This document shows, piece by piece, positions 1,881 through 58,100 of a DNA stretch of 64,000 nucleotides. The DNA is from a virus (taxonomy: Duplodnaviria > Caudoviricetes): IMG/VR virus record IMGVR_UViG_3300005611_000001, one strand, 5' to 3'. Made by a program: the position numbers and the translations under genes. The notes below the pieces were generated by a model. That model saw only the letters and a list, made by a program, of their open reading frames with translations. It was not told the DNA's origin and did no database searches. The first letter of the stretch is position 1, and every line of letters starts with the position of its first letter.

Positions 1881-2603
1881 CTAAGCTCCGTCGACGAGAA
1901 TAATGTCGAACGCACAAGTAACTTTAAAGTTATTATTTGCTGTAGTAAAGCGAATGTCAATATCCGATTTTTCTGAAATTCTTAAAGGTACGGGAAAGTC
2001 ATAACGATAAGAGTTATCATATAGTTCTGCTATATGAGCGACTCGAAAACCTCCTTCTCCGAAAATTCGAGCCATCATCGTAATTTGCCCGTCGCCGCCC
2101 TTGGAAATGGAAGAGTCTCCGCAAAGAAGATACCCCGTCTTGCCTGCGGGAACTGTATAAACTCCCATAAGACTTTGCCCTCGTCCAGCAGCAATCTGTG
2201 CTACGACGGTTGCTCCGATGCTGGCATTTACAGTTCCTGCTACTCCCCCATTTGAAGTTCCGTACATACGAAAGACTCGAATAAAACTATTTTGAGTAGT
2301 AGCATTCGTGGGGGTACCGTCAGCCGCAGTAAGAACTACAACTTCTCGAAGAGGATTATAGTTTGCATCGAGACCTTCAATTGCTACGCTCTCTCCAGTA
2401 TCGTCATCCGTAGAAGAAATTACATCCAACGCAGTAGCGGTAGCTAAAGTTCCCCAAGGATAAATACCCCCAACCGTCCAAAGAGTCTCCGTTCCTTGAT
2501 CACAGTCAAAATTTGCACCAAACTTATGAATAATACTTGCACCAGGAACGAGCCCTCTTGCAATGTTGAGATAATTCCACTCTACAAAACTATTTCTTGA
2601 CAC
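1881..2603 (-). CDS. conserved beta-rich phage protein (possible virion component)
   Basis: HKFGANFD...ETLWTVGGIYPW motif; GTG start at 2603 preceded by GGAGA. Confidence 0.65.
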   Translation of the reverse strand: MSRNSFVEWNYLNIARGLVPGASIIHKFGANFDCDQGTETLWTVGGIYPWGTLATATALDVISSTDDDTGESVAIEGLDANYNPLREVVVLTAADGTPTNATTQNSFIRVFRMYGTSNGGVAGTVNASIGATVVAQIAAGRGQSLMGVYTVPAGKTGYLLCGDSSISKGGDGQITMMARIFGEGGFRVAHIAELYDNSYRYDFPVPLRISEKSDIDIRFTTANNNFKVTCAFDIILVDGA

Positions 2604-3183
2604 CTGAATCTCCGTATTCAAACATTTCCAGGTCTTTGGCAAATTTCTCTGCAACCTTCAAAGCGGTTTGTATGCTATAATACTCTCGCCAAGGGCGATG
2701 AGTAGAAGAGTTAATAAGTTTTAACTTTGGAAGACCAAACCATTTCATCATATTCTCCCAGTCTTGTTCTAGTGTCTCAAACTTAATGAGATAATCCCAG
2801 CAGGGAATATGAAGATGCATTGGCCTAAAATGAATATTGTGTTCCTCAAAAGGGAGTTCACACACTCGATCAATAAATTCATCAAAAGGCATCTTTGCGT
2901 AAAAACCCTTCGTGTCTGTGATACTGCTTTTACCGCCTTCCCAGAGTTTTTGTTTCCAGCAAGACACTAAGCGATCATAAGGATTTCTTACGCAAGCTAC
3001 CTTAAAAAGAGGGCTGAAAGGAATCTCTTCAAGAGGGACTCTTTTCCAGCCTCCATGTAGCTTGTCTGGGTGAGTACTTCCGCCTGCCCACTCACGAATA
3101 GCTGTTTTCATAGCGCTATTCGCAGCTTTCGGCGTAAACATCAAAAGAAACTTATTTTCTGCGACGAGGTTTAAATCCGCCAT
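2590..3183 (-). CDS. PAPS-dependent sulfotransferase (Sulfotransfer_2-like)
   Basis: FTPKAANS (5'-PSB-like) and VRNPYDRLVS (3'-PB) motifs. Confidence 0.8.
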   Translation of the reverse strand: MADLNLVAENKFLLMFTPKAANSAMKTAIREWAGGSTHPDKLHGGWKRVPLEEIPFSPLFKVACVRNPYDRLVSCWKQKLWEGGKSSITDTKGFYAKMPFDEFIDRVCELPFEEHNIHFRPMHLHIPCWDYLIKFETLEQDWENMMKWFGLPKLKLINSSTHRPWREYYSIQTALKVAEKFAKDLEMFEYGDSGVKK

Positions 3184-3275
3184 ATTCAATTGCTCTTAGT
3201 AGACGAACCATTTTACCTGCACTGCTTTTAGATTTGGCTGTCGCTATTTTCTTTCCGGTTTTCTTGTAAACGGTC

Positions 3276-4075: not shown

Positions 4076-4360
4076 TTAGCCTCTCCGAACCATCCGAGTA
4101 CGACGGCGACGGCGAGCAGGTGCAGCACCGATGCCCCGTACAGAAGTTTTAAAGCTGCCGGTCCGGGGGGTCGCTGCTTTCGTCGTCCGAGTGTTCCGAC
4201 GCACTGCTGTCGAGCCCGTCGAGGCCACTGAGGTCACTTGCGTCCCCGCTGCTCGGTTCATCTCCCGAGAGAGGCCCCGACCCTGCGTGTGCTTCGGTAG
4301 TTTCAGAGAGACGTGCGGACGAGGAACCCCCGTCAGAACTCCGCCTGTTCGTGTTGCCAT
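4076..4360 (-). CDS. small Arg/Thr-rich basic protein
   Basis: 94 aa, AGGAG RBS, ends ARRRRRTRMVRRG. Confidence 0.65.
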   Translation of the reverse strand: MATRTGGVLTGVPRPHVSLKLPKHTQGRGLSREMNRAAGTQVTSVASTGSTAVRRNTRTTKAATPRTGSFKTSVRGIGAAPARRRRRTRMVRRG

Positions 4361-4450
4361 TGTATTCTCCTAAAAAGGCTTCAGCCTCTTTCTTTGTAGG
4401 AAATCTATATAGGCGGTCAGTGCGAACGCGCCAGTATCCTCTACGATAAA

Positions 4451-4654
4451 TCATTGTTTCACCAGTATTTCGAGTTGTGCATGAACTCTAGCAACATCGA
4501 CTTGAAGCTGGTTTACTTTTTCAAGCATTACTTCTTGCTTGTTGAGAGCTTCTTCATGAGCCTCTACTTTTTCGGAAAGTGCAGAAGCCCACCAAATTAC
4601 AGCAGCAAACTCAAGAGTAAAGCCCAGAAGTAGGCTAAGACTTAGTTTCTCCAT
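4451..4654 (-). CDS. membrane-anchored coiled-coil protein
   Basis: N-terminal hydrophobic helix then heptad-like tail. Confidence 0.6.
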   Translation of the reverse strand: MEKLSLSLLLGFTLEFAAVIWWASALSEKVEAHEEALNKQEVMLEKVNQLQVDVARVHAQLEILVKQ

Positions 4655-6085: not shown

Positions 6086-6114
6086 ATTGTAATCTGTTGT
6101 GTGGCCTAGGTCAA
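6086..6114 (-). promoter_or_regulatory. sigma70-type promoter for the terS block
   Basis: TTGACC-17-TACAAT, A-tract upstream. Confidence 0.7.
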
Positions 6115-6142: not shown

Positions 6143-6340
6143 CTATAATACTTTTGCTCTTGCCCACGCATTACACTGATGAATGGCAGATACTCTTATC
6201 ATTGGTGAGGGAACAGCACGATTGCTAAAAGAATTCATGCACTGTTCCCGTAAATGACGAACTTGAGCGAGTTGTGCTTCTTCCACTATTGAAGTCGAAG
6301 CACACCCGCCGAGAAGAAATATAATTAAATACTTAGCCAT
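6143..6340 (-). CDS. small lipoprotein
   Basis: MAKYLIIFLLGGC lipobox. Confidence 0.65.
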   Translation of the reverse strand: MAKYLIIFLLGGCASTSIVEEAQLAQVRHLREQCMNSFSNRAVPSPMIRVSAIHQCNAWARAKVL

Positions 6341-6872
6341 CTGACAAAGGATTATCCAGCGCTTTTTGTAGGGTATCTCTTAAATCTTCGTCTAGCTTTT
6401 GCATCTTCATATCAATACGATCTTCTACTTCTCGCATTGTATTTCTAACATCTTTTTCTGACTCTCGAGAAAGGTCAGATACTTGTCGTAGTCGAGAATC
6501 AATCTCGTCTTGTACATCTTTCATTCGCTTGCTTGTATCTTCTGTCACTCTTTCTACTCGAAGAATGTCGTCTCTGAGACTATTCTTAATATCTCTTGTA
6601 TAATCAATTGCATCATCAAGTTTACGCTCAATTGCAACATTGCGAGCTTCTACAGCTTCGATGTCAAGTACCTCTAGCTTTTCTGCCATTTCCTGAAAAG
6701 CCTTATAGGACTCGAAACCTGCGTAAAGTGTTCCTAGCAGAGAGCCAAGAAGTGCAAATGCTGCTCCAATCGTGGTAGGCGTCATCGAAATACCTGCCAC
6801 TGTAAATTTTGTGTTTTTGAGATTTTCAATCTCTTCTTCGACTTTCTCTACTCCGTCCCCCAGATCAGCCAT
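6333..6872 (-). CDS. membrane-anchored long coiled-coil protein
   Basis: TM segment IGAAFALLGSLLGTLYAGF followed by ~120 aa charged heptads. Confidence 0.7.
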   Translation of the reverse strand: MADLGDGVEKVEEEIENLKNTKFTVAGISMTPTTIGAAFALLGSLLGTLYAGFESYKAFQEMAEKLEVLDIEAVEARNVAIERKLDDAIDYTRDIKNSLRDDILRVERVTEDTSKRMKDVQDEIDSRLRQVSDLSRESEKDVRNTMREVEDRIDMKMQKLDEDLRDTLQKALDNPLSDG

Positions 6873-6874
6873 AT

Positions 6875-7297
6875 TTAGTTCTCAAACTTGAGGTTATTGA
6901 GGGCGTTTATTTCCGCTCTCAACTTCTGCACCTCCAATCGTCGTCTTTCCAGCTCTAACTGGTAAAGAGTATTACAATTTAATCTCTCTGCGGGTGCTCC
7001 AATCGGTATCGTTATCTTGCCGTACACACCCACATCTTTCATCTGGTCATTTGTAATTACAGGATCCACAAAAGTGTTTCCAAGTTGATTTCCCTGATTA
7101 ATAATACCCACTACTCCAAACTCAACATTCGTCGCGGACCCAATGGCACTAGAGCAATCTAAGTCGCCCGCTCGAAATCTATCTGTTTGAAAACTTTGCT
7201 GAGTCTGAGGAATTGCAAGGTTCAAAGAACTTGTCTGTGCAAATACGCTCAAAGGTAGCAAAAAAAGTATTAATCTTTTCATTTTACCTTGGAACAA
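6875..7297 (-). CDS. exported protein, Cys-flanked beta-hairpin plus C-terminal coiled coil
   Basis: Signal peptide MKRLILFLLPLSVFA; DLDC...RLNC. Confidence 0.7.
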   Translation of the reverse strand: MFQGKMKRLILFLLPLSVFAQTSSLNLAIPQTQQSFQTDRFRAGDLDCSSAIGSATNVEFGVVGIINQGNQLGNTFVDPVITNDQMKDVGVYGKITIPIGAPAERLNCNTLYQLELERRRLEVQKLRAEINALNNLKFEN

Positions 7298-7716
7298 ATT
7301 TTAGAAGAAATTACAGTACCTTTTACCCCGCGCAGAATCTTGGACATTGAGCAAATATACATTACACGCGTCGAGTCAATCTCTCTTATATAAATGTCAA
7401 TCTTACGTCGACCTAGATGCGGTATTTTTACAATTCGTTCTGCTGTTGCAAAAGGTACTGGAAGCCAGTCTGCGTCATAAACATCAAACTGGTAGTATTC
7501 AATCTCTCGTCGACTGTTAAACAGCTCCATACGAGTTTGCAGTATGCCCGGCATGTAAGAGGGCAAAAGCTGCGGATAGGTAGGAGTAAACTGATGTGCG
7601 CTAGCACTCGATGCGATTAAAGCGCAACACACTCCGCATTTACCACGGAGGTATATTCGCCTCCAGGAAACGCCTTGTCCGCACCATAGTCTGCTTGTGA
7701 ACTTACTCCAAACCAT
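7279..7716 (-). CDS. exported beta-rich protein (fimbrial-chaperone-like?); real start probably GTG 7632
   Basis: ASA-HQFTP cleavage site; alternating hydrophobic strands; two C-terminal Cys. Confidence 0.6.
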   Translation of the reverse strand: MVWSKFTSRLWCGQGVSWRRIYLRGKCGVCCALIASSASAHQFTPTYPQLLPSYMPGILQTRMELFNSRREIEYYQFDVYDADWLPVPFATAERIVKIPHLGRRKIDIYIREIDSTRVMYICSMSKILRGVKGTVISSKICSKVK

Positions 7717-8108
7717 ACTGTACCTGCTACTGTGAGATCAAATTCTGACACATTGTTGTATGTACGCTTATTCGTGTCATAGTCCGCCTGAAGAGGATCT
7801 GTAACTTCTGCAACGCTCACCGACCCCGTCCAGTTTACAACGTCACTCAACGCGGGGCTGGAAGAAAACACTTCGGGTGTGGAAATCACAGCCTTGTAGA
7901 AGTTCGCACTGATTACATCAAACCGAATCACCGGCTCCACACCTCCGTCTGCCGCAGCAGTGCTCAAGCGACTCGGAGTCGGGTTGCCATACACGCCGGG
8001 AGTATCTGTTACAATTACACACTTGGAAGCAACCGTTCCCATAATGGGGGTGTCTTCCGCTAGCACAGGCCCCGCCAAGAAAGCGATTGCCAAAGCCAAC
8101 TTTTTCAT
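7617..8108 (-). CDS. exported pilin-like (Csu/spore-coat-U-like) protein
   Basis: Signal peptide, N-terminal GTVASKC, C-terminal PGGEYTSVVNAEC resembling chaperone-usher pilin ends. Confidence 0.55.
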   Translation of the reverse strand: MKKLALAIAFLAGPVLAEDTPIMGTVASKCVIVTDTPGVYGNPTPSRLSTAAADGGVEPVIRFDVISANFYKAVISTPEVFSSSPALSDVVNWTGSVSVAEVTDPLQADYDTNKRTYNNVSEFDLTVAGTVWFGVSSQADYGADKAFPGGEYTSVVNAECVAL

Positions 8109-8891
8109 TTATTTCTCCTCATACTGTGCGTTTACCATTTCATCATGTAAACGCTGTTGGGCAAAGTTCATTCTACGTCCTTGCCTATTATCAGAAATGT
8201 CCTTCCCAGGAAGAAAAGAGTCTTGTATTGATCCACCCGGCATCGCAACGTAGTAGCTCGCTGGAACAATATCGAGTGCAAAAAATTGTGCTGCAAGCTC
8301 CGCTTGAGCAACGGCGTTCGACCCCGCTTCTCTTGTTCTTTCTTTTACCTGCATCTGGCGGCGCTCGAGATCCTCTTGATTCTGATCTCGTAGAGCGTCC
8401 AGAGTATACTCAACCGAAGGAATCTCTACCGAAGGCGCTGGAGGAATATAGTTAGGACATCCAAGAGTCGGCTCAGCGCAGGAATCGTACTGATAGGTAT
8501 AGACGATGTTTTCGTTGAATACAGTTCCCTGGCCTTGTAGGCTCAAAGCACCAGCACCCATAGTCTCCCCTAAAATATTCAGAGGTGCGCCTCTTGTAAT
8601 TGTGTTGCCTGGCAATCCATTCCAGTTATCTGTGAAAGTAAATAGTCGAGAACCGGCTACTGAGTTCTGCTCAATATTGACTTGAAAATCGTCTGCGGGG
8701 TTTTTGCTCACGGCATAACGCCAGGCGATTCCATTTACGACAAGTCCTGTCTCTGGAGGAAGCACATTCTGCATATTCCAGGTTCGGCCGAGCGCGACGA
8801 CATTCGGCGTACTCTCGAAAACCTCAGATTGCGAGTAGCAGTGCGAGGAGGCTAGCAATGCCAATACCACCAAATGCAGTCTTCTTACCAT
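8109..8891 (-). CDS. exported hypothetical protein
   Basis: Signal peptide; beta-rich N-domain ending YDSC...CPNY. Confidence 0.7.
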   Translation of the reverse strand: MVRRLHLVVLALLASSHCYSQSEVFESTPNVVALGRTWNMQNVLPPETGLVVNGIAWRYAVSKNPADDFQVNIEQNSVAGSRLFTFTDNWNGLPGNTITRGAPLNILGETMGAGALSLQGQGTVFNENIVYTYQYDSCAEPTLGCPNYIPPAPSVEIPSVEYTLDALRDQNQEDLERRQMQVKERTREAGSNAVAQAELAAQFFALDIVPASYYVAMPGGSIQDSFLPGKDISDNRQGRRMNFAQQRLHDEMVNAQYEEK

Positions 8892-9330
8892 TTGAAATTT
8901 CCTTCTCCGGCTGCTCTTCTTCGTGTGCGAGCCATGCAGCTTTTGCCTCTGGACCGATTAGCCCATCGTAGGGGCAGGGTGTCCCGGCATTCATCATGGC
9001 GTCGAACACACGCTTATCCTGGCACATCGTAGAGACGGCGGCAACTTTCATACCCATATCATAGAGCGTCTTTGCGTTCTTGAGGCGCTCGCAGTTCATG
9101 TCTCGTACAGTTGCGCCTGCACTGAGACCAAGAATTTGTGTCTGGACTGCGCCTGCCACTCCGACTGTGCAAAGATCCGAATTACTGAAGTTCATTGTCG
9201 GAATGATTGCGGACGGAGGCGGACTCTCTACGGTTGTCCGAACTGTACTATCTGTTGTGGCCTCCGTCACGATGGGCGCTTCTTGTGCGAGAGCGGTAAT
9301 CGGAAGAAGAAGTAAAATTAGTTTTTTCAT
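8824..9330 (-). CDS. exported protein with Cys-flanked Gly-rich hairpin and C-terminal TM anchor
   Basis: MKKLILLLLPITALA; SPPPSAI..DLC...DMNCERLK...MCQD...GTPCP; hydrophobic C-terminus. Confidence 0.75.
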   Translation of the reverse strand: MKKLILLLLPITALAQEAPIVTEATTDSTVRTTVESPPPSAIIPTMNFSNSDLCTVGVAGAVQTQILGLSAGATVRDMNCERLKNAKTLYDMGMKVAAVSTMCQDKRVFDAMMNAGTPCPYDGLIGPEAKAAWLAHEEEQPEKEISNGKKTAFGGIGIASLLALLLAI

Positions 9331-9364
9331 AATTTGTTTTGGGGGTGGTCCTATCATGTATCAA

Positions 9365-9393
9365 ATTATAAGGGGTTGTGGGGCGGTTGTCAA
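9365..9393 (-). promoter_or_regulatory. consensus sigma70 promoter for exported-protein operon
   Basis: TTGACA-17-TATAAT. Confidence 0.85.
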
Positions 9394-12802: not shown

Positions 12803-12831
12803 ATTATACGCGGGCCGGCAAGGTTTGTCAA
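12803..12831 (-). promoter_or_regulatory. consensus promoter antisense to A2-like copy 2
   Basis: TTGACA-17-TATAAT on minus strand, no credible CDS downstream. Confidence 0.7.
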
Positions 12832-13997: not shown

Positions 13998-14026
13998 TTG
14001 ACAACACACCTCCAACACCGTATAAT
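13998..14026 (+). promoter_or_regulatory. consensus early promoter
   Basis: AAAAATAATTC-TTGACA-17-TATAAT. Confidence 0.9.
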
Positions 14027-20835: not shown

Positions 20836-21206
20836 AGCGTCGCCAAGTATTTCCCGAAGAGTTCGTAACCTCTTTGAATTCTAGCTTCGTACTCTTCCGT
20901 TAAGTTTACGCCCCCTTCAAACAGAGTGCCGGGCTCACGATATATGGGAGCTTCCAGAGTTACCTGTTCAAAGGTCCAAATTAATTCATTAAGAAGCCAT
21001 TGCCAGCGATCATAATCGTACTCGTTCATGTTTCTTAGATCCACGGGTACGTCAGAATTGTCGACTGTGCCGAAACTCACATCGTTTTCCTGCAACTTGA
21101 GTAACATGGCATAGACTAAAGGAGCAAGTGTACTTTCAAAAGACATGATGTCTTCATCTTCTACATTTAACTCTTTTACTTGCAGATTATGTCTTCGGTA
21201 AATCAT
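20826..21206 (-). CDS. conserved phage hypothetical protein
   Basis: TLAPLV..ML..L...DVP..L...RWQWLLNELIWTFE...RIQRG.ELFGKY..LW. Confidence 0.7.
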   Translation of the reverse strand: MIYRRHNLQVKELNVEDEDIMSFESTLAPLVYAMLLKLQENDVSFGTVDNSDVPVDLRNMNEYDYDRWQWLLNELIWTFEQVTLEAPIYREPGTLFEGGVNLTEEYEARIQRGYELFGKYLATLWT

Positions 21207-22183
21207 ATGTGAGCCAGCCTTTCCATAAAGGTGGAATAACATTTTTCCCAGGACCACTCAGGTCCGGAAACTCGTCCAAGACTTTTGCATTTTTCTATAG
21301 CTTCTTCTAAGTTATTGCTGAGATATCCTGTTTTATTTATCTCTACAATATCGCAGGGTCCGGGTACTGGATAAGCTGCAACCGGAGTTCCTAGTGCTAA
21401 ACTTTCGATAAGTACAATTCCAAAGGTATCGGAGCGGCTGGGAAAGCAAAAAACTTCAGAAGAAGCATATTCATCTGCAAGTTCTTGACCTTTTTTGTAC
21501 CCAACAAAATTTACATTAGAATATTTTTGTTCGAGTATTTTTCTCTCGGGGCCGTCGCCTACAATATGAATGTCATACTTCGATCCCAATACACATAGGT
21601 CTTCTAAGTTTTTCTCTTTGCTAACTCTTCCAACGTACAGCACACGATTTTTAACTGGCTTTTTATTACTGATAAATTGAGCCTTATCTACCCCACGGCT
21701 CCATAATATTAAACTACCATTAAATTTTTTATCACGAAGCTGCAAGCGAATGGACTCTGTAGGAACCAAAGTATTTGCCGCTCTAGAGTGAAACCATCTT
21801 AGATACTTCCACGTAATACCAGAGGGAATTTTATACATCTTTTCTAAAAACATAGGAAATTGAGTATGATAGCTAGTAGTAAATTTCCAGTTTTTCTTAA
21901 TACAATAAAGTCGAGTTAAAAGCCCAAGAGGCCCTTCTGTAGCGATATGAATATGAGTAGGCTTATAGGAAGAAATTTCTTGAAAAACCTTCAAAGGCTG
22001 AACCGTAAGCCTTACTTCGGGGTACCCAAAAGCAGAAACATTGCGAAAGTCATCAGGAGTAAGAAGCCGAAGCTCCGCATAGTCTGGCATAAAAACTTTG
22101 GCAAGTTCTTGAATTTTATTTAGAGTTATTGCAACTCCGTTGACTTGACTTGTTAAGTTGTCACTTACTACTAAAACTCGCAT
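21203..22183 (-). CDS. GT4 glycosyltransferase, Agt-like (candidate diacylglycerol glycosyltransferase)
   Basis: QVNGVAITL, HIATEGPLG, FTTSYHT.FP, WSRGVD, LYVGRVSKEKN, VGDGP, FPSRSDTFG.V.IESLA.GTPVAAYPVPGP. Confidence 0.85.
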   Translation of the reverse strand: MRVLVVSDNLTSQVNGVAITLNKIQELAKVFMPDYAELRLLTPDDFRNVSAFGYPEVRLTVQPLKVFQEISSYKPTHIHIATEGPLGLLTRLYCIKKNWKFTTSYHTQFPMFLEKMYKIPSGITWKYLRWFHSRAANTLVPTESIRLQLRDKKFNGSLILWSRGVDKAQFISNKKPVKNRVLYVGRVSKEKNLEDLCVLGSKYDIHIVGDGPERKILEQKYSNVNFVGYKKGQELADEYASSEVFCFPSRSDTFGIVLIESLALGTPVAAYPVPGPCDIVEINKTGYLSNNLEEAIEKCKSLGRVSGPEWSWEKCYSTFMERLAHI

Positions 22184-22347
22184 TTCTTCTTGTTCCATCT
22201 TTTAATAGCAGCCTTACGAGCACGACGACGAGCGTCACTCGGTTTCTCATAAAACTGGCGCTCACGATATTCCTGGAGCTTCTCGCTCACACCGCGTTTT
22301 AGCTTTCTTAGTGCGCGATCAACATTGTTCTTCACTTGTACTTTCAA
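22171..22347 (-). CDS. rpsU: ribosomal protein bS21
   Basis: Not in ORF track (58 aa, TTG start, AGGA RBS): MKVQVKNNVDRALRKLKRGVSEKLQEYRERQFYEKPSDARRRARKAAIKRWNKKKCEF. Confidence 0.9.
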   Translation of the reverse strand: MKVQVKNNVDRALRKLKRGVSEKLQEYRERQFYEKPSDARRRARKAAIKRWNKKKCEF

Positions 22348-22614: not shown

Positions 22615-22703
22615 ATTGTAGCTCACTTTCGTCTGGCTGTCAACAAACATTTTTAGGTAGCTTAAAAATAAGTGTTGACACGGCGGGGTCTTTCCCGTAT
22701 AAT
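22615..22703. promoter_or_regulatory. divergent promoter pair
   Basis: - TTGACA-17-TACAAT (22615-22643); + TTGACA-17-TATAAT (22675-22703). Confidence 0.85.
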
Positions 22704-25364: not shown

Positions 25365-25985
25365 ATGATTACAAAAACCAAGTTTCTTTTTATTCTTGTA
25401 GCCATGTATTGTTTTCTCACATGGGCAATAGAACCTAGTGACGGTAAAGTAAATCAACTTCACCCGATGATTCAAAGCCCGACAAAGAGTATTCCTCTGG
25501 AGCAGCCGCTTTCTCCTCCTCTCTCTTCAAGCAAAGCTGCTCCAGAGGAACCTATCTACGAAGAGCGCGAGATCGAATGCCTCGCGCTCAATTCTTATTT
25601 TGAAGCCCGCAATCAATCCCTTGCGGGCCAAATCGCAGTGGCTCAGGTAGTGCTGAATCGTGTACGCAGCAAAGACTATCCCGACACCATCTGTGAAGTG
25701 ATACAGCAAGGTCCTACCTACGAAAACTGGAAAGGCAACATTCTTCCAGTTCGCAATCAGTGTCACTTTTCTTGGTGGTGTGACGGCAAAAGTGACATAC
25801 CGCAAGACGAAGAAACATATCAAAACATTTTAAATCTTGTAACTCAAATTATACAAGACAAGCCTATTGACATTACAGAAGGAAGTCTGTATTATCATGC
25901 AGACTATGTAAAACCTTTCTGGGCACCTACATTAAAAAGAACACTTGTAATCGATAATCATATTTTTTATAAAAACATTCTGTGA
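25365..25985 (+). CDS. cell wall hydrolase, SleB/Hydrolase_2 family, N-terminal anchor
   Basis: CLALNSYFEARNQ...AVAQVVLNR...FSWWCDG...YYHADYV.P.WA...IDNHIFY. Confidence 0.9.
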   Translation: MITKTKFLFILVAMYCFLTWAIEPSDGKVNQLHPMIQSPTKSIPLEQPLSPPLSSSKAAPEEPIYEEREIECLALNSYFEARNQSLAGQIAVAQVVLNRVRSKDYPDTICEVIQQGPTYENWKGNILPVRNQCHFSWWCDGKSDIPQDEETYQNILNLVTQIIQDKPIDITEGSLYYHADYVKPFWAPTLKRTLVIDNHIFYKNIL

Positions 25986-46454: not shown

Positions 46455-49400
46455 ATGGCGACACAATTTACTTCTAGTACGTTATCTGGCATTTATAATG
46501 ACGATTGGTCAGAAGCAGATAACTATCACCAGATTCTATTCAATAATGGAAGAGCGCTTCAAGCACGAGAGTTGACGCAGCTTCAGACCATAATTTTCAA
46601 TGAGCTTGGTCGTCTTGGAAAAAACATTTTCAAAGAAGGTGCGACGCTTTCTGCTGGCGGCATTGCAGTAAACGCAGACTATGAGTATATCAAAGTTTCT
46701 GCGACAAATGCTGGTGGTGCTTTTGCGAGTATTCCTGTAGGTACAGTTTTTAAGAATCCTAATACAAACGTTGAAGCAAGAGTATTAGAAGTCAAGCCTC
46801 GTGATGGCGTCAACTTCATTCTTGATACTCTTTATGTTCAGTATATTAACAGTGGTGCTAGCGCAATTGGTTCGACTCCGACTAGATTTGGAGACGGTGA
46901 TGTTCTGTTTGATCAGTCTGGCGGTGGTTATCAGATTACAACAGAAACACCAAATGCTACAGGAAAAGGCGTAAGATTTACAGTAGGCGAAGGCGACTTC
47001 TTTATCATGGGTCACTTCGTTCACACACAAGAACAATCGCTTATTCTTTCGCCGTACACTGAAATTGCAAATGCAACTGTTGGTTTTAAAGTAATTCAAG
47101 AAGTTGTTACTGTCAACGATAACAGCGCACTTTTCGACAATGCTAGCGGTATTGTAAATACAGCGTCACCTGGCGCTGATCGATATCGCATCAGTCTTGT
47201 ACTCACAACACAAGATCAAATTGCTTCGGACGAAACCTTTGTTTTTATTGCAACGGTTGAAAATTCTAAAGTTACAGAAGAAATTGAAGAGAATGATGCA
47301 TATAACAAGATTGAAGAATTTGTTGCTCTAAGAACAAAAGAAGAATCTGGAAATTATGTAGTCAATCCTTTTGTCATCAACGTTCAAGATGCAGTAGTTG
47401 GTGACTCTAGCCTTGAGCTTGTGGTGTCTCCTGGGCTTGCGTATATCAACGGATATAGAATAAGCAAGTCTTCGTCTACAAAACTTAATATCCCTCGTCC
47501 ACAGCAAACAGAGACCGTTGCCAACGATGTTGTGCCCATTGTCTATGGAAATTATTTCATTTCTGATAGCAATAGAGGTCTTCCAAATCTTGACGCAACA
47601 CAAGTAAACGTGTATAATGCTTTTGGTGCCGGCGGCTCAGCTATAGGAACTGCTAGAATACGCGCAGTTCAAAAAGATGGTGCTAATCATCGTGTGTATG
47701 TGTTCGATATTAGCGTCGATTCTGATCAAAGCTTGCGTGATGCAAAGAGCATTGGTACAGGCGCAACAGACATCTTCAATCTCGTTCGCGAAGCTGACGG
47801 TGCTAAACTTTATGGGGTGACAGACAATGATCTTCTGTTCCCAACTTCACGCCCTCGCCCTGAATCTTTTGCTGATGTCATTCTAACAAAACAAATTCAT
47901 GAAGGTAGCCTTGTCGCTGACGGTAGCGGAATCATTACTCTGCAAACTCTTTCTTCTGGGCAAGCTTATACAGACACAACTCTTTGGGTTGTTGCTTCTG
48001 CTGATTCTTCTGCAAGGGCTCACACTGTAGGCGCACCCACGAACAGTGGGCGTGACGTTCAAATTTCTGGCCTTGTTGCAGGTAAAACTTACGAGGTTCT
48101 CTCGTATGTTCAAAAGACTGCTACAAGAAAGGCAAAGACACTCACCACAGCAACTGCAACTCTTCCGAAGCAAACTGACACTGTTAATAACATCACTTAC
48201 TACGAATTTACAGTGCCTGATATCTTCGAAGTTGATTCTGCGAAAGCGAATAGCTCGTCAGGCATCAACATGCTTCCAAGTCTTCTTCTTGATGACGGTC
48301 AGCGCGATAACTTCTATGCGAAGGGTCGTCTGATTATGAATCCTGCGGACAGCGCGCCGCCTAATCTTTTTGTTAATTATCGTTACTTTGCGCGTGGCGC
48401 TGGTGGCGATTTCTTTGATGCAACTTCTTATGGTAATGTGCCTGTTGCATACAAAGACATTCCTAATCATGTGCAAAAAGACGGTACGATTGTAAATCTG
48501 CGCAATTATCTGGATTTCAGACCTGACGAAACTTCGTTTGGCTCAGCGTCTGCCATTTTCGATCTGCCAAGAAATGGTGATAATATCACTGCAGATGTTA
48601 GCTATTATCTACCTCGTGCTGACAAGCTTCTTCTGACACAAGAAGGTGAATTCCAAATTCTGTTGGGGCAGCAAGCTGGTAATCCTCAGTATAAGCCAAC
48701 ACCTGATAATGCTCTTGAAGTCTACAAAATTCTATTAAATGCAAACACTCTTGATGAGAATGACCTCAAAGTTACGCCTGTTGAGCATAAGCATTACACG
48801 ATGGCAGATATTGCCAAGATTGAAGCCAAGCTTGATGATCTTGAAGAGTATACAACACTCAGTCTGCTTGAGCTTGAGCAGAAGCTGAATGCTGCGCTTG
48901 ACAGTGATGGCATTGAGCGTGTTGAAAGTGGTTCACAAGTCGACGACTTTAGTGATCAGACTGGTGCTGATACAAAGAATCCTGACTATGCGGCTGCAAT
49001 CGATCCGGAAAGTAAACTCATTCGCCCAATGATTGACGAAGACAACATTCGTCTCATCATTGACAATACGCTTTCTTCAAATATTCTTAAGAAAGGCGAC
49101 AATGTTTACATCAACTACGACTCTGCTGAGTGGGCAGTGCAGTCTCTTGCTTCTCGCTCTGTTAAGATCAATCCGTTTGGTCTTGTCGACAACGTTGGTA
49201 CGATCAAGCTTTCGCCGACATCTGACGAATGGAAAGAGTCCGTTCAAGAAGCAGAGAAAGCAGTATCAGGTTCGGGAAGACTAGATCGTAAACAAGCGCT
49301 TCTTTGGAACAACTGGTCTTGGAACTGGTTTGGGCGTAGTCTAGAAAATATTGAGTTTGACTATGCACAAATTCGTTCGCCTAATCCAAGAATTCGTCAA

Positions 49401-51845
49401 CGCGCATTGCTAGACTTGCGTGAGCAATATTCTTCTAGCTATACACTTCAGAAGAGAGAAAATTCTAATAGCGGTCGCTTCGTATCTCGTGTTGCGCCTT
49501 CTGATACACTTCGTCAGACAATTGGTAAGCGCATTGTTGACCTTGCTCTGATCCCATGGATTCGTTCTAGAAAGATTTATTTCCATGCGAAGGGGCTTAA
49601 GCCTAACACCAGATTTACACCATTCTTTGATGGTGAGAAAGTGACGCAATGGTGTCGTCAAGAAGTGACCTTTGTTCAGTATTCTGATCGCACAGACGAT
49701 GCTGGTAACCAACGTACACACCAAGCAATCACTGCACACCCAAGTGGATCTACCAGCCTTATCTCTGATGAGAACGGTGAGATCATTGGTTCTTTCTTTG
49801 TGCCTAACATTCGCCCTCAGTATTATCTGCCTAAAATCAATCAGAGCGCAAGATTAAAAGCACAAAACGAACGTTATCGTTCCGGTATTCGCGAATTCAA
49901 ACTGCTTGATATTGATACAAACGATTGGGCTGCTGCAGGTAGTAAAGCATTTACTTATTACTCTGCGAGCGGTACTGTCTGGAATCAAATTACTAATTTG
50001 AATTCAACTCGCCCAAGTGAGTACAATTGGCCGATTCCTTATTGGGCGAACTTCCCGCAGTCTTTCAGTTCTAAAGAACTACAAAACTATGTAAATCAGG
50101 TTCGCGAAGCTGAAGTTAAGCTGGTCGATCCTAAACTATCTGGTAAGTATGGTCCTGGCGCTGGTGCTCTGTCTGTTGCTGCTCTTCGCGGGCTTGACAA
50201 CACTGGGCAAATGTCGCAAGTTCTTTCTGACTATATCGACGTAGATCAGAATCAGTTTGCGTCTAATATTGTTTCGACAATGACTGCGCCTCAGAATCCA
50301 ATGGCACAGACTTTCTATGTCGACAATCAATTTGGTGTTGTGTTGACGAGTGTGCAGTTGTATTTCAGAACGAAGGACACTGGTAATCTTCCTGTTTCAA
50401 TTCATCTGCGCCCCGTAGTAAATGGTCGCCCGTCGAATCACGAGATAATTCCAGATTCTCATGTGTATTTGAATCCTGGCCAAGTAACAGCAATTGGTAC
50501 TAATCCAACTCTATCGGTGATTCAAGAAAGACCTACTACATTCACCTTTACTGAGCCTGTCTATCTTGATCCATGGACTCACTACGCAATTGTTGTGAGT
50601 TCACAATCTACTGAGTATGAGCTATTCAGCGCGAAGACTCAAGAGCCTGTGTTCGGTTCTACGTCTAGAATCGTTACAACTCAGCCTGCACCTGGATCAC
50701 TCTTCTTGCCTCAGAATGGTATGTTCTGGGTTGAGACTAAAGACCAAGACCTTATGTTCAAGTTGAAGCGCGCAAGCTTTGATCTTGGCGGCGCGAGTTT
50801 GATTCTTAAGAATGCAAACTTACCTGCTAAACTTCTGAACAGCAACCCTCTGCAGACATACAGTGGCACTAGAAAAGTTTATGTGCACCAAATGTGTCAC
50901 GGGCTTGAGCCTGGCGATTTAGCGTTTATCGACAGCGCAGAGAATATTGCTGGAATTACAGCGTCAACTTATCTCAACGGCAGTCATGTAGTTGATTCTG
51001 CTGACATTCATGGATTCACTTTCAGATATGATTCTGTCGGACCAGTTGCCAACAGTTCTTCAATTGGTGGCGGTGACAAGGTGCTTTCTCGTAGAAATGT
51101 AATCTTTAATGTGACCAACCCTTACATTGAGACTGTGATTCCTAACAATACTTCTATTGATGTTTCTGCTAAATTTACTGAAGGCAAAAACATTTCTAGT
51201 ACAAGAATCACTGCTTCAGGTCGTTGGACACAAGACGAAGAATATTCGCGTGTGACTCCAAGACAGAATGTCGAGTTTGCAACACCAAAAGCAATTTACA
51301 ATGTTGCTGCTGAAACATTAAATCTTGGTGCAGGCGTTGCTTCGGCTTATGTCAAAGTGGACCTAAAGACAGCAAACAACTATGTTTCTCCTGTTGTTGA
51401 TCTGCAAAGAGCATCACTTGTTCTTGTTGGTTTCTGTCAAGACAACCCTGATGTCACACCACACATCAATCCAGTCGCTGAAACTCAACCATCGGGTGGT
51501 ACAACTGGATCGAAACACATCACTGCGCCTGTGTTCCTCGATCAAGATGCTGTTGGTATTGAAGCACGAGCGCTCGTGAACATCCCTGACGCTGCTGATA
51601 TTGTAATGTATTATCGCACAGCGTCTGCGGATGAAAACATCTATGAAAAGTATTGGAAAGTTCAATCTCCTGTAGATGACATTCCTTTTGATAATAGCAT
51701 AAGATATCGTGACGCACAATGGCTTGCTGGCGGAAAAGGTGGTACTTTGAAACCATTCAATCAAGTGCAGGTTAAATTCGTGCTTAAAGGTGCTGATGCT
51801 GCACCTTCAATGAGAAATTTGAGACTTCGTTATCTGGCGGTGTAA
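46455..51845 (+). CDS. large virion structural / fibre protein (VrlC-like, DUF4815-type)
   Basis: YNDD....NY.QILF..GRALQARELTQLQ, ASPGADRY, RT.EESGNY, YYLPR.DK, YTM.DI.K. Confidence 0.85.
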   Translation: MATQFTSSTLSGIYNDDWSEADNYHQILFNNGRALQARELTQLQTIIFNELGRLGKNIFKEGATLSAGGIAVNADYEYIKVSATNAGGAFASIPVGTVFKNPNTNVEARVLEVKPRDGVNFILDTLYVQYINSGASAIGSTPTRFGDGDVLFDQSGGGYQITTETPNATGKGVRFTVGEGDFFIMGHFVHTQEQSLILSPYTEIANATVGFKVIQEVVTVNDNSALFDNASGIVNTASPGADRYRISLVLTTQDQIASDETFVFIATVENSKVTEEIEENDAYNKIEEFVALRTKEESGNYVVNPFVINVQDAVVGDSSLELVVSPGLAYINGYRISKSSSTKLNIPRPQQTETVANDVVPIVYGNYFISDSNRGLPNLDATQVNVYNAFGAGGSAIGTARIRAVQKDGANHRVYVFDISVDSDQSLRDAKSIGTGATDIFNLVREADGAKLYGVTDNDLLFPTSRPRPESFADVILTKQIHEGSLVADGSGIITLQTLSSGQAYTDTTLWVVASADSSARAHTVGAPTNSGRDVQISGLVAGKTYEVLSYVQKTATRKAKTLTTATATLPKQTDTVNNITYYEFTVPDIFEVDSAKANSSSGINMLPSLLLDDGQRDNFYAKGRLIMNPADSAPPNLFVNYRYFARGAGGDFFDATSYGNVPVAYKDIPNHVQKDGTIVNLRNYLDFRPDETSFGSASAIFDLPRNGDNITADVSYYLPRADKLLLTQEGEFQILLGQQAGNPQYKPTPDNALEVYKILLNANTLDENDLKVTPVEHKHYTMADIAKIEAKLDDLEEYTTLSLLELEQKLNAALDSDGIERVESGSQVDDFSDQTGADTKNPDYAAAIDPESKLIRPMIDEDNIRLIIDNTLSSNILKKGDNVYINYDSAEWAVQSLASRSVKINPFGLVDNVGTIKLSPTSDEWKESVQEAEKAVSGSGRLDRKQALLWNNWSWNWFGRSLENIEFDYAQIRSPNPRIRQRALLDLREQYSSSYTLQKRENSNSGRFVSRVAPSDTLRQTIGKRIVDLALIPWIRSRKIYFHAKGLKPNTRFTPFFDGEKVTQWCRQEVTFVQYSDRTDDAGNQRTHQAITAHPSGSTSLISDENGEIIGSFFVPNIRPQYYLPKINQSARLKAQNERYRSGIREFKLLDIDTNDWAAAGSKAFTYYSASGTVWNQITNLNSTRPSEYNWPIPYWANFPQSFSSKELQNYVNQVREAEVKLVDPKLSGKYGPGAGALSVAALRGLDNTGQMSQVLSDYIDVDQNQFASNIVSTMTAPQNPMAQTFYVDNQFGVVLTSVQLYFRTKDTGNLPVSIHLRPVVNGRPSNHEIIPDSHVYLNPGQVTAIGTNPTLSVIQERPTTFTFTEPVYLDPWTHYAIVVSSQSTEYELFSAKTQEPVFGSTSRIVTTQPAPGSLFLPQNGMFWVETKDQDLMFKLKRASFDLGGASLILKNANLPAKLLNSNPLQTYSGTRKVYVHQMCHGLEPGDLAFIDSAENIAGITASTYLNGSHVVDSADIHGFTFRYDSVGPVANSSSIGGGDKVLSRRNVIFNVTNPYIETVIPNNTSIDVSAKFTEGKNISSTRITASGRWTQDEEYSRVTPRQNVEFATPKAIYNVAAETLNLGAGVASAYVKVDLKTANNYVSPVVDLQRASLVLVGFCQDNPDVTPHINPVAETQPSGGTTGSKHITAPVFLDQDAVGIEARALVNIPDAADIVMYYRTASADENIYEKYWKVQSPVDDIPFDNSIRYRDAQWLAGGKGGTLKPFNQVQVKFVLKGADAAPSMRNLRLRYLAV

Positions 51846-52111: not shown

Positions 52112-55100
52112 ATGCCAGTACGCCCACTAAAACACTTAAATGCAGGCGCGCTCAAAGAACTTCTGATTTCTGAAGAAGATTATCTTGCATATCGTGCCGG
52201 TGTTCATTTAGGTAAAATGAACATCGAAAGCGCTGCTGCATTGTCGCAAGACACGCGCGGCGAATTAGTGGGTATTTTCGAAGATACTTTCTATGGTTCT
52301 GGTTCTGGACCAGTGACAGGGCAGACATATGCTAGAGCATATTCTGTCACACATCTTTCTGATCAGTCTAGTGCGCATCAGGTCACAATTGAAGAGCCTA
52401 TAACACCTTTACCATCAACAGTAAATGTTAACGATTCGCTTGCAATTACTGTGTCTGGTAATGCGATTAGCACTGGTACTGGATATGAAGAAATTGAATA
52501 TCAGCTAGGCTTGTCTGGTACTGCAAGCTATAGCATTACAAGTGTATCTACAACACCTGCAGCAACAAACGTTGCTGGTCTTCAAGCTTCTTGGGAAGAT
52601 TATGCGACCGGAAGTCTTTCTGGTTCGTATGAAGCGACGTTTACTATTCAATTTACAGCTTCTGGTACCGTTAACGTTACGCTGAACGCATCTTCTACTG
52701 ACATAGAAAACGCTGCTCCTGGTGCTTCTGACAGTCATAACTTTTCTACAATAAGTGTACAGCCAGGTGTTCAACCAATCGCGCTTGGTACTGTCAGCGA
52801 AATTTATCAAAACAAAGTTGAAGACTATCCTCTTGATTTGACGAACAATCTCGTTCGCAACCCTTTCTATTGGGATACCTCTAGAAATGGTTTGAAAGAA
52901 ATGAGTGGCGCTGAGCTTGATGTTGTGTGCGAGCGTCTTGTTAAGAAAATCATGGCAAATGAAATGCCAGGTTCTTTCAGACTTTCTGCGTTTTCTCCTG
53001 GTGCTGATTGGCAAGTTTTTCTAGAAGATGTCTTCACTGATACCAGAGGTGACGGTACTACTTTCGACTATTCTATTTGGATTAGAACAAGTGGAACTGC
53101 ACCAACTCCTGTTAAACCAGTAGGTCCTGTCCGCACAAATAATATTTTCTCAGGAATTCGTGAATTAAGCGATCTTGAAACAGAATACACTTTCGGCGAA
53201 AGAATGAAGAAAGTGATTATGGACACTGGGATCGGCACATATGAAATGCGAAAGTCTGGTGACGGTCCTCCTACCGCACCAGGCACTTGGGTCGCAAGAG
53301 GTAGTGCTGTAGATACTCGTCAATCGTTTGCTGCTGGCGCTTCATACGAAGGCACTTCAACTTATGAAGTCCCTTATAATACTGATTATGCAGGAACTTA
53401 CACTGGTGATTATTCTGGGAATTATACTCCAAATTATGAAGGAACTTATGTAAACGAGTATTCTCCTCAGTATACAGATTCTTATACTGGCGATTATACT
53501 GGTGATTATACTGGAACGTTTGAAGGTGATTATGTAGAAACCTACACTGGTAATTTCTTGCAACAGTATACACAAGATTATACTGGTGATTATGTTGGCT
53601 CTTACACACCAACTTATGCTGGTACTGACATTGAAGAGCCATATACAACACCGTACGAAGGTCTAGAATCCGAAGAACAGTACACTGTAGATTTTGAGAC
53701 AGCAAACTATACCGGGAACTTTATCGAAGAATATTCTGGTGATTTCACTACGAATTACACAGGCGATTATGTTGCTACATACGTTGAAGAATTGTATGCA
53801 GGTAATTACGTCTCTGAATATACTGGTGATTATGAGTCACCATACACAGGCAACTTCTTAGAGACTTACGTCGATGATCAGTATACAGGCAACTATGAGT
53901 CTGACTATACTGGTGACTATGAATCTGCTTATACTGGAGATTTCACAGAAACGTATGTCGACGATCAGTACACGGGAGATTTTCTTCAGGAATATACTGG
54001 TGACTTTCTAACACAATATGTTGGTGATTTTCTTGAGACTTATGTTCAAGAGCAATATACTGGTGATTTTTCTGACACATACACTGACGACTTGTACACT
54101 GGTAATTTCTTAGAAAATTACACTGGTGATTATGAGTCTAATTACGCAACACAGTTTCAAGAGACCTATGTTGATGATCAGTACACAGGTAACTTCTTAG
54201 AAAACTACACTGGTGATTACGAGTCTGATTACACTGGTGATTTTACCGAAAATTATATTGACGATACTTACATCGGCAATTTTACCGAAGTATACACTGG
54301 TGATTATGTATCTGCATACGCTGGTGATTATATATCGAACTACATTGATGATCAATATACAGGAAATTATATTGACGCTTACACCGGCGACTTTACTGTA
54401 GTTTACAGTGGTGACTTCGAAACAAACTATGTCGATGAAATATATGCCGGTAACTTTGTAGAAGTTTACTCAGGTGATTTTACCGATAGCTATATTACAA
54501 GCTATGTCGAGACATATCTTCAAGCAGACTATACTGGTAATTATCAGTCTCCATATACTGGCGATTTCATCGAGACTTACACTGGCAACTTTGAGACGAA
54601 TTACACTCAAGAAATTTATTCTGGTGACTTTGAATCTACCTATGCTGGCGACTATGAATCTACATACACTGGTAATTATACCAGTGATTATGAAGTTGCG
54701 CCATATACAGGTGATTATCTAACAGACTACACCGGCGACTTCATCGAAACTTATACTGGTGAATTCATCGAAAACTATGTCGATGATCAGTATTCTGGTG
54801 ACTATGAATCTGCGTACACTGGTGATTTTCTTGAAACATATACTGGTGATTTTGCTCAAAACTTTATTGATGCAGTCTATACTGGTGATTACGAGTCTCC
54901 ATACACTGGCGATTTTACAGAATCGTTCGAAGGTCAATACACCGGTGATTATGAATCGTCATACACAGGTAACTTCTTAGAGACATATAGTGGTGATTAT
55001 GTAACCTCTTTTGCTGGTAATTATATCACTGATTATACAGTAGATTACACTGGTAATTTCATTGAAGAATATATCGACGATATTTACACTGGCGACTACG

Positions 55101-58100
55101 AGTCTGTGTATAGTGGCGATTTTGTTCAGTCGTTTGAAGGGCAGTATACTGGTAACTTCTTAGAAATTTATTCTGGCAATTTTGAGACAGTTTACTCAGG
55201 AGATTTCACTGAAACTTTTGAGGGGCAATACACTTCGTCTTACGAAATTGACTATACTGGTAACTTCCTAGAAGAGTATGTTGATGATCAGTATACAGGC
55301 AACTATGTTTCTGAATATACTGGCGATTTTCTTACGGACTACACTGGTAACTTTGTTGAAAATTATATCGATGGTGTTTATCAGAGCGATTACGAACAAA
55401 CTTATACAAACGAATTCGGTACAAATTATACTGGTGATTTCTTAGACACTTACATCAGCGATAACTACGAATCTTCTTACGATACAAACTACCAAGACAG
55501 TCTCTACGCTAGCCAATATACACAAGAGTATACAGGCGATTATAATCAGGCTTACATTCTAATTTTCCAAGAAGCGTATGCTCAAGCTGAACTAACATAT
55601 AGCAGCTACGAAGGTGCTGCAACATACACTGGCGATTATCTTTCGGATTATCAGTTTGATTATGAAAGAAGATATGAAAGCACCTTTACTACAATTTATA
55701 ATTCAGAACAATATGAAGCGACATTTGACAATCCCACTCCCTACGAGACTCTTTACAACACGCCTGAAGTTTACTCGCAAGGATATGTCGAAGAATACGT
55801 TGGAACTGTCACAACAGCTTATGGCGGTTCTGATTATGTTCAAGATTTTCAAGGCGGAGGTTACACAACTGGTGATCAAGATGACGTAGATACTACCACT
55901 TATTTTAGAGGTGATGTAGAGATTTACGTTGGTGATTATCTTGGATCAGGATATTACGAACAGAATTATCAGCAAGGTGATGGTAATTATGTTAATAGTC
56001 AGTATCTGCCTCCGAATACTCCCCCAGGTGTTGCCCCAAATCTCGCGGCTGGCGGCATAACATATGTCGCTGGGACAGGTGATGGAAATATTTATGCGCA
56101 AACTTATCAAAGCCCGAGCACCAGTTCGGGCGCTGACAACTTTCTAAACACTGACTATTATCTTGGCGGTGTGTCTTACGTCCACGGCTATGTGCCTGGT
56201 GGGGATGATAATTTTATAAATTATACCTCAGGGGTGCCCGTCGCTCCAGATCGTGGAACGGTTTATTATGGTCCTAGTGGCAGTTATTCCGGCGAGAGGT
56301 CAATTGACTACACAGGAACACTTTCAGGCAGTTATCAAGCTGATTATATATTCTTCTCTATATCATATACTGGGCCTACTGGTTCTTATGTTGGTGGTGG
56401 CTACGAAGAAGTATATATTTCAGAAGGCGATCCTATAATAGTGACCGGCGAACCTACTGGGTATTCAGGTCCCTTGACTGGCGATCCTGGATATCCTACC
56501 GTCACAACTTTCACAGGACCTGAAACTCTAAGTGATGATGTGGCAGTTGGTTATGTCCCTTCATATGTAGGAACTTATACACCAGCAGATTACATAGGTA
56601 CTTATGTCGGAGGTTTCGAAAGCCCAGATGCTTTAGGTTATACTGGTGATTATACTGGCAATTATGATGCTGACATCTATTCTCAGTTTTTTGAGTCCGG
56701 GCTCTTCTCTCTTGATGATATTTATGAAGGTGTGATTTATAGCCCGAATGTTTATATAGAAGGCGGCCGCGGGCCTAACCAACTTGGTATCCCGCAATTG
56801 CTCGGGACCTTCTATTATGGACCGCAAGGTGTATTTACTGTAGCATACTTAGGTCCTTTAGGTTGGTTTATTGGGTCAAACCCTGCTTTTTACATTGGTC
56901 CTTATGTGGATACTTATGAAACATTATTTGCAGAAAGAAGTAATGTATACGAACAATCTTATCAAGATGGTTACTTAGACAGCAGCTATCAAGGGGAAAA
57001 TTTCGAAAGCGGGGATGTTTTCGAAGCTCCTCCTTATTCTGGAGATGCCGCCAACTATTTTGGCATCGTCCCCGGGGGCGCCACCGTTAATTATATAACC
57101 AACCCGACTTATGGTGCTTTTCCCGATGGCGGACCCGACGCTGGATATCTCTCACTAGGTGCAGCATTTACTGACGCTATACCCTATACGTCTGGTTATA
57201 CAGACGATCTTCAACCAGGAGACGGTCAAGATAACGTCTATCTGTCTGGTTATGGCGGTGGTTATGAGACTTCAAATGAAGTTTACCAGGGTAATCTCGG
57301 CAATACTTATACAGTTATTAACGAGTATATTGGTGATTATCTCACTGGTGGTTTTATTGCGACTTTTTCCATTAGAGAACAATCGTATGGAGGTTATGAA
57401 GGATATGAAGGTAGCTATCTTGCACCTCCAATTACCACCTATTATGGTCCTTTTGGGAGCTTCGGCGCGCTTTCAGTGTATCAAGGCGTTCCCGCTTATA
57501 CTACAGGATATAGTTACCCCGACTCAATAGATTATTTGGGTTCGTATGTAGGTCCTCCCTCTACTTATTATGGTCCTGGCGGGGGTTTTAGTACACCTCC
57601 TTATGAAGCTGGTAGTACAGACCTTGAAACTTTTGCGGGGACATATGGTTCTGGCGGTGATACAACTGTATATGTCGGTCCAGGTAATCCATATGAAAGT
57701 CAAAACTTATATACTCAAAATTCATATGAAGGACCTGACCAACTTTTTGGGGCGAAGGGATTTGCTACACCTTATAGTGGTTTTGAAAACCAAACTACTT
57801 ATTACGGGCCTCTGCAATATTATATTGGGGGCGAGGAGATCATACTTCCTGGTGATATTATAATACCCGGGCAGCTGCCCGAGGTTGAGCCTCCAGCGTC
57901 TGGTACGACAGACGGTATTGCTTTTGTCGGTGATCTTGCACCAGTTACTTATGGTGCTCATTATATAAATGAAGGCCCTATAACGTATGAAGGCCCTAAA
58001 CTTTTAAATTCGAGTGGAATTTATGCAGGACCAGGCAATTTTGTGGGACCTATAGTTTATATAGGGCTTGTTTACTATGGTCCCGCCGGACAGTTCGCCG

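Follow-up and report, generated by a model that had tools for sequence, protein, structure and literature searches.

A conserved operon of exported proteins in a T4-like marine phage: a possible trans-envelope module for lysis with a chaperone-like and a pilin-like protein

What does a tailed phage gain from a compact set of seven genes whose products are all sent to the cell envelope? This question is raised by positions 6143-9393 of the IMG/VR virus record IMGVR_UViG_3300005611_000001 (Duplodnaviria; Caudoviricetes), a DNA of 64,000 nucleotides which, at its full length, is called here the window. An earlier note, made from the sequence alone, had proposed that this operon builds a structure on the cell surface, either a minimal pilus or a pore. 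The present analysis points to a different answer, to which we give a probability of about 40%: the operon would encode a trans-envelope module with a role at lysis, one that has acquired a chaperone–subunit pair working without an usher. The seven genes, named g1 to g7 from the promoter onwards, and the two promoters that delimit them are the following:

9365-9393, minus strand: consensus sigma-70 promoter (TTGACA, 17 bases, TATAAT), with the ATG of g1 35 bases downstream.
8824-9330, minus strand: g1, 168 amino acids (aa), with a signal peptide, a Thr/Ser-rich stalk, a four-Cys domain and a C-terminal membrane helix.
8109-8891, minus strand: g2, 260 aa, secreted, with a signal peptide, an N-terminal beta domain, a C-x6-8-C motif and an acidic linker.
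7617-8108, minus strand: g3, 163 aa, a secreted, pilin-like beta-sandwich with a signal peptide and the motifs GTVASKC...GEYTSVV.
7279-7716, minus strand: g4, a secreted, single-domain, PapD-N-like "half chaperone", starting at ATG 7716 or GTG 7632.
6875-7282, minus strand: g5, 135 aa, secreted, with a signal peptide and a C-terminal coiled coil.
6333-6872, minus strand: g6, with its N-terminus inside, one membrane helix (about residues 30-52) and a periplasmic coiled coil of about 120 aa.
6143-6340, minus strand: g7, a lipoprotein of 65 aa with the lipobox LLGGC, whose start overlaps the stop of g6 by 8 bases.
6086-6114, minus strand: the next sigma-70-like promoter (TTGACC, 17 bases, TACAAT), which closes the operon on its downstream side; behind it lie a DUF7936 gene and terS.

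The seven genes are packed on the minus strand, 3′ of a promoter (9393-9365) that matches the sigma-70 consensus perfectly. Four perfect TTGACA-17-TATAAT sites are present in the window (9365-9393, 12803-12831, 13998-14026, and 22675-22703), against a chance expectation of 0.04, and the non-structural genes of this phage are evidently served by consensus promoters of the host type. Behind their single promoter the genes are translationally packed. The junctions range from an overlap of 68 bases to a gap of 2 bases, and, except for one site within g2, the operon contains no terminator-like sites on the coding strand. All seven products carry a signal peptide, a membrane anchor or a lipobox, and a crude scan of about 96 open reading frames (ORFs) showed that clear Sec signal peptides cluster in the operon. 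The description in the earlier note of one perfect sigma-70 promoter followed by seven envelope-targeted genes is therefore confirmed. Scans of the seven proteins against Pfam, NCBIfam and PHROGs gave no named family. A second small ORF with a lipobox-like LLGGC N-terminus, of 101 aa and also without a family match, is found on the minus strand at 282-587.

Chaperone N-domains of the chaperone-usher pathway came top of all three structure searches made with the model of g4 (pLDDT 87.7): Foldseek gave DraB, FaeE, SafB, PapD, Caf1M, FimC, and CsuC (E-values from 1e-4, for DraB; TM-scores 0.55-0.68), VIA-align gave Z-scores of 11.0 to FimC (root-mean-square deviation 2.6, 98 residues aligned) and 10.9 to SafB, and the PapD_N families of the ESM Atlas matched at TM-scores of 0.73-0.74. 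The chaperone-like beta protein that had been postulated next to the pilin candidate is, at the level of the fold, substantiated by these matches. Mature g4 is a single domain of about 105 aa, and a dedicated search found no longer forms with a second domain. ATG 7716 is the likelier start, because GTG 7632 would give a leader of merely 12 residues; in all relatives an invariant histidine directly follows the signal peptide, and in this sub-clade a workable leader is obtained from ATG 7716 only. The same invariant N-terminal histidine led to g4 being considered as a copper-binding protein (histidine-brace or CopC-like), an assignment that was dropped in view of the PapD-like fold and of the position of the histidine within the predicted interface with g3. 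Two further invariant residues, Cys94 in predicted strand F (92-99) and Cys113 in strand G (111-115), are placed in a way from which we infer an FGL-like F1-G1 disulfide. This bond is the mark of the FGL chaperones (PMC4133393, Table 2), which build thin flexible fibres (PMC4133393).

The pilin-like character ascribed to g3 holds weakly. Its model is a beta-sandwich (pLDDT 73) whose best solved matches in Foldseek are pilins (CfaB, SafA, FimG, and Caf1; E-values 1e-3 to 4e-2, TM-scores 0.4-0.5), and DUF4402 (TM-score 0.58) and SCPU (0.52) are among its Atlas matches, while VIA-align returned generic beta-sandwiches only, with Z-scores of at most 7.5. Cys29, in the first strand, and Cys159, in the last one, are invariant, and the mature N-terminus begins with a conserved alternating P-I-x-G-x-V-x-S-K stretch. 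At E-values up to 1, neither g3 nor g4 matches any Pfam family. An exhaustive profile search with g3 recovered the same small family only; it includes five distant full-length relatives, mostly on contigs too short for context, and the distant relatives have no Pfam match to SCPU, PapD_N or fimbrial families.

When g3 and g4 were folded together, the ipSAE was 0.70, against 0.00 for the best control; this passes a mark that was reached in 58 of 80 solved complexes and in 2 of 110 mismatched pairs, although chaperone–subunit complexes have already been solved, so the pass may reflect memory. Three runs agreed in at least 93% of the contacts, with a partner pLDDT of at least 87. In the predicted complex, strands A1 (13-19) and G1 (107-115) of g4 are laid along the first strand (27-33) and the last strand (150-162) of g3. 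The geometry is that of donor-strand complementation, which is a likeness and not a measure of binding. The check for such complementation that the earlier note had proposed for 7617-8108 has thus given a predicted docking, with g4 as the partner and with the reservation just made.

In the models, therefore, g3 and g4 behave like a chaperone and its subunit, yet the pair is not a member of the chaperone-usher pathway (FGL: Caf1M–Caf1, SafB–SafA, DraB–DraE; archaic: Csu/SCPU). It shares with that pathway the fold of the PapD N-domain with one cysteine in each of strands F and G, the arrangement of FGL chaperones, an Ig-like beta-sandwich as the second partner, and a predicted interface between A1/G1 of the chaperone and the first and last strands of the subunit. 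It stands outside because neither protein matches Pfam PapD_N (PF00345), SCPU (PF05229) or fimbrial families, because g4 has one domain instead of the two (PapD_N and PapD_C) of the boomerang-shaped chaperones, and because no usher accompanies it. Furthermore, the g3-g4 family is confined to phages and sits in a set of six genes that also encodes membrane coiled-coil proteins and proteins with a tail anchor. The lack of a visible usher had been remarked upon for the window, where indeed no large ORF matches Usher; it extends to the complete 197-kilobase (kb) genome of a relative (G001) and to two partial relatives, in which PF00577 has no match. No other outer-membrane barrel was found in the window or in the complete relative.

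The operon is conserved as a unit, with the exception of g7. About 20 contigs of uncultured marine phages in IMG/VR carry g1 to g6 in one and the same order, with identities of 51-95% for g3 and down to 28-33% for g2 and g6. A distant copy (L030), whose g3 is 27% identical, contains the same six genes in the order g1, g2, g6, g3, g4, g5. The persistence of the six genes through this rearrangement and divergence, together with their conserved tight coupling, argues for one function. In L030 a staphylococcal-nuclease-like gene (SNase, 4166-4633) directly follows g5. Close relatives were found in viral or metagenomic DNA only, and records of cultured phages have no match for the operon DNA or for the g3 protein. 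A bacterial origin was considered and rejected, since the matches in species-representative genomes (GTDB) are limited to short contigs of metagenome-assembled genomes (MAGs) that resemble binned phage DNA. For instance, MAGs labelled Melainabacteria, Methanobacteriota, and Polaribacter hold short contigs with the module (L040-L044), most likely phage DNA binned into them.

The most conserved member by far is g1. Its four-Cys domain, with long invariant runs and four invariant cysteines, contains an alternating amphipathic Gly/Val/Ala hairpin between the first two cysteines. The protein matches PHROG 20531 (6.6e-13), is about 50% identical to pelagiphage proteins, and has at least 8000 related metagenomic clusters. 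An alternative ATG is present at 9357. Stalk length varies among relatives, and domain fusions were rejected as an explanation of the longer g1 forms, which add low-complexity Thr/Ser/Asn stalk only. An assignment as a GlyGly-CTERM protein was also rejected, given that there is no NCBIfam match and that the usual basic tail is absent. The same 68 bases (8824-8891) encode, in two frames, the C-terminal membrane helix of g1 and the signal peptide of g2, and this overlap, of 65-71 bases, is kept in nearly all related loci. The C-terminal end of g2 is conserved as well (...AQQ.LH..MV..QY); in a language-model search of the Atlas, g2 gave leads to FlhE at 0.80, which is at chance level.

In mature g5, an invariant SSLNL..P forms the N-terminus, and two conserved amphipathic strands, closed by the invariant Cys43-Cys103, flank a hypervariable loop. 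The two proteins g1 and g5 had been described together as carrying Cys-closed hairpins. Invariant cysteine pairs are indeed present in both, but hhalign detected no homology between the two (probability 0.4%), nor between g2 and g3 or between g5 and g6. Profile searches of the PDB found no match for g1 or g5, and the language-model search of the Atlas with g5 found its own viral clusters only.

The membrane coiled coil and the lipoprotein that had been recognized in g6 and g7 are both borne out. Past its helix, g6 is charged and heptad-like, with weak matches to coiled-coil families only, and it ends in an invariant LDNPL motif. Among the approximately 20 loci, g7 is present only in the window, L003, L005, and L006 (between g5 and g6 in L005), and is thus an accessory gene of the closest relatives.

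The neighbourhood of related genes in other phages is important for the interpretation of this operon. Profile searches revealed, in eight podophages (HTVC115P, HTVC023P, HTVC033P, HTVC202P, Baldr, CRP-207, CRP-810, and MW202481), a trio made up of a g1-like gene, a gene for a secreted protein of 260-530 aa, and a g6-like gene whose product has a membrane helix, a coiled coil and a C-terminal NPL. None of the eight carries g3, g4 or g5. The contexts of the trio include the following:

HTVC023P: an M15 endolysin directly 3′ of the g6-like gene.
HTVC033P: an amidase three genes upstream of the trio.
MW202481: a multi-helix holin-like gene and a signal-anchored lysozyme, two genes downstream of the trio.
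HTVC202P and Baldr: terL beside the trio; the module of the window likewise precedes terS.

Several trio genes carry public labels that seem misleading. The "lysozymes" CRP-810 gp51 (L025, 5294-5716) and CRP-207 gp73 (L049, 3292-3873) are g6-like coiled coils; the former has no Pfam lysozyme domain, and the sequence of the latter shows a membrane helix, a coiled coil and a C-terminal NPL only. The "OmpA family" label of a g1-like protein of CRP-810 without a Pfam match (L025, 3908-4663) and the "tonB" label of the protein in the g2 position of MW202481 (L045, 3823-4929) also look wrong.

The phage of the window is T4-like, not T5-like, because it has T4-type baseplate genes (a block of gp48-, gp53-, gp5-, gp25-, gp6-, and gp7-like genes) and TATAAATA late motifs. 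The gp6 shares 41% identity with its counterpart in phage C48C1 and 33% with the one in the pelagimyophage HTVC008M. The late motifs stand directly 5′ of four baseplate or large structural genes (34156, 42480, 45061, and 52072), and none lies inside the operon. The earlier comparison of the genomic position with that of the receptor-blocking T5 lipoprotein Llp consequently fails: g7 is, like Llp, a small lipoprotein encoded by a phage, but the phage is of another type, and a search of 50,697 phage records with E-values allowed up to 1 gave no match to g7.

The class of the promoter that serves the module is not fixed. A sigma-70 consensus, the promoter type of the window, precedes g1 by about 56 bases in L005, L006, and L009, while in L011 and L017 it is replaced by TATAAATA at −70/−77. 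This variation between sigma-70 and T4-late promoters agrees with a product that does no harm early on and is not required before the end of infection. Spanins are needed at the end of infection and are harmless before, so that a promoter of either class fits a spanin-like timing; it fits superinfection exclusion, the role suggested at first, less well. The late promoters of some relatives, together with a g1/g2/g6 core beside podophage endolysins, favour a role in lysis over early exclusion.

On this basis, the following mechanism can be proposed. Three proteins would make up the old core: g1, whose periplasmic Cys domain is anchored by its tail, the large secreted g2, and g6, a coiled coil that is held in the inner membrane and ends in a conserved NPL tip. 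Many marine and freshwater podophages share this core, often within or beside the lysis cassette. We infer that the proteins form one complex, which would span the periplasm and, as spanins do, act at the end of infection on the outer envelope layers. In the marine T4-like lineage, g3, g4 and g5 would have been inserted as an added layer. After export through Sec, the half chaperone g4 would clasp the Ig-like g3, with its A1 and G1 edge strands against the first and last strands of g3, and would keep g3 in solution or poised for transfer inside the complex; an usher would play no part. In this phage and its nearest kin, g7 probably supplies the outer-membrane anchor, as a small outer-membrane lipoprotein whose gene overlaps g6 in the way that o-spanin genes overlap i-spanin genes. 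What is shown of all this are the signals for export, the joint conservation of the genes, the fold of g4 and the genomic settings; the interface of g3 and g4 is a prediction.

The comparison with two-component spanins, such as Rz/Rz1 of lambda and PseT.3/PseT.2 of T4, shows points on both sides. With its N-terminal membrane helix and long periplasmic coiled coil, g6 has the build of an i-spanin, the small lipoprotein gene g7 overlaps its end as the genes of spanin pairs do, and g6-type genes adjoin endolysins in several podophages. In contrast to such spanins, g6 is always accompanied by g1 and a large secreted protein, and the operon of the window lies outside any lysis cassette. The unimolecular spanin gp11 of T1, which has an N-terminal export signal, a C-terminal membrane helix and a periplasmic domain between them, resembles g1 in this build. 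The signal peptide of g1 is nevertheless an ordinary one, without a lipobox, and g1 carries in addition the four-Cys domain and the low-complexity stalk.

The endolysin candidate of the window counts in favour of a lysis module, as it has no rival spanin neighbours:

25365-25985, plus strand: SleB-type endolysin candidate (Pfam Hydrolase_2, 8e-24; PHROG endolysin) with an N-terminal signal-anchor-like helix; a ThyX-like gene comes next, and no holin or spanin-like genes adjoin it.

A search of the complete relative G001 for three endolysin families found none of them. Several observations weigh against the lysis module. The operon lies 16 kb from the endolysin candidate and adjoins terS instead, and an endolysin is near the trio in only three of the eight podophages. 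No member matches a spanin, holin or lysis family in Pfam, NCBIfam or PHROGs. The absence of g7 from most relatives implies that g6 and g7 are not an obligate spanin pair, and g1 is much more conserved than is usual for spanins. The fold assignment of g3 is weak, given its pLDDT of 73, a best Z-score of 7.5 and matches to generic beta-sandwiches. Finally, we know of no lysis system that contains a pilin–chaperone pair.

A bolder form of the lysis module, which we regard as rather unlikely, would make the six proteins an undescribed trans-envelope machine of ocean phages, in which the usher-free pair builds a donor-strand-linked strut or fibre between a coiled-coil platform of g6 and g1 at the inner membrane and the hairpin protein g5, which would insert into the outer membrane. 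If this were true, it would represent a new, usher-free assembly of Ig-like polymers, and also the missing device for outer-membrane disruption or exit in abundant marine phages that lack recognizable spanins.

The alternative that survives best, doubtful as it is, retains a periplasmic device and gives it another target. The proteins would, for example, block or hijack a conserved envelope machine of the host (peptidoglycan synthesis, Lpt/Bam, pili or secretins) to gain control of the envelope during infection, with g3 and g4 as a stable heterodimer instead of a polymerising pair. The extreme conservation of the g1 domain across phages of alpha- and gamma-proteobacterial hosts, with its invariant runs and an identity of about 50% to pelagiphage proteins, points to a host target that is itself conserved. 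The great abundance of the g1 family and the absence of an usher and of a two-domain chaperone also agree with this alternative. It nonetheless leaves unexplained the spanin-like layout of g6 and g7 and the neighbourhood of lysis genes, and no similarity to inhibitor or enzyme families was found.

The surface structure proposed in the earlier note is improbable, and less likely than the lysis module. In its most explicit form, g4 would chaperone g3, g3 would polymerise by donor-strand exchange and leave through a pore of g5 and/or g1 or through an usher of the host, and the resulting fibre or capsule would block superinfection, grazing or re-adsorption. In its favour are the pilin-like and chaperone-like folds with their predicted docking and the F1-G1 disulfide common to FGL chaperones, the builders of thin flexible fibres (PMC4133393). 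The conserved stretch at the mature N-terminus of g3 could be a donor strand, the hypervariable loop of g5 and the variable Thr/Ser/Asn stalk of g1 are typical of exposed proteins, and the strong early-type promoter of the window fits exclusion. However, an usher or outer-membrane barrel is missing from the window and from the complete relative, g1 and g5 are unrelated to each other and to any pore family, the late promoter of some relatives would come too late for exclusion, and the g1/g2/g6 core exists without g3-g5 in podophages, beside lysis genes. The analysis has given no support to a surface location, to polymerisation or to a pore.

That the operon joins two unrelated cassettes, one of lysis type (g1-g2-g6, with or without g7) and an inserted g3-g4-g5 with a job of its own, would fit the podophages that carry only g1, the g2-position protein and g6, but is equally improbable in view of the six genes staying together in the T4-like lineage through rearrangement and deep divergence, with their tight coupling conserved.

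The literature on phage-encoded parts of the chaperone-usher pathway or on pelagiphage spanins yielded nothing relevant, and a description of the module was not found. New here are the T4-like identity of the phage, the podophage trio with its lysis neighbourhood, the switch of promoter class, the spanin-like overlap of g6 and g7, and the putative FGL-type disulfide. The module is carried by phages of dominant ocean bacteria, and all its members are either listed as hypothetical or wrongly labelled ("lysozyme", "OmpA", "TonB"). If the lysis module proposed here is correct, it would make up for the so far unexplained absence of spanins from marine phages and would bear on the way in which carbon is released by viral lysis in the sea. 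If g3 and g4 work as predicted, they would be a natural, minimal, usher-free case of donor-strand complementation, of interest for pilus biology and for the engineering of protein polymers.

Some other genes of the window deserve mention:

46455-51845, plus strand: a DUF4815 protein of 1796 aa, behind a late motif and preceding the next ORF.
52112-63856, plus strand: an ORF of 3914 aa without any Pfam match, also behind a late motif.
2590-3189, minus strand: a sulfotransferase (Sulfotransfer_2, 7e-15).
21203-22198, minus strand: a GT4 glycosyltransferase (5e-23).

The first two are presumably giant fibre or baseplate-distal proteins.

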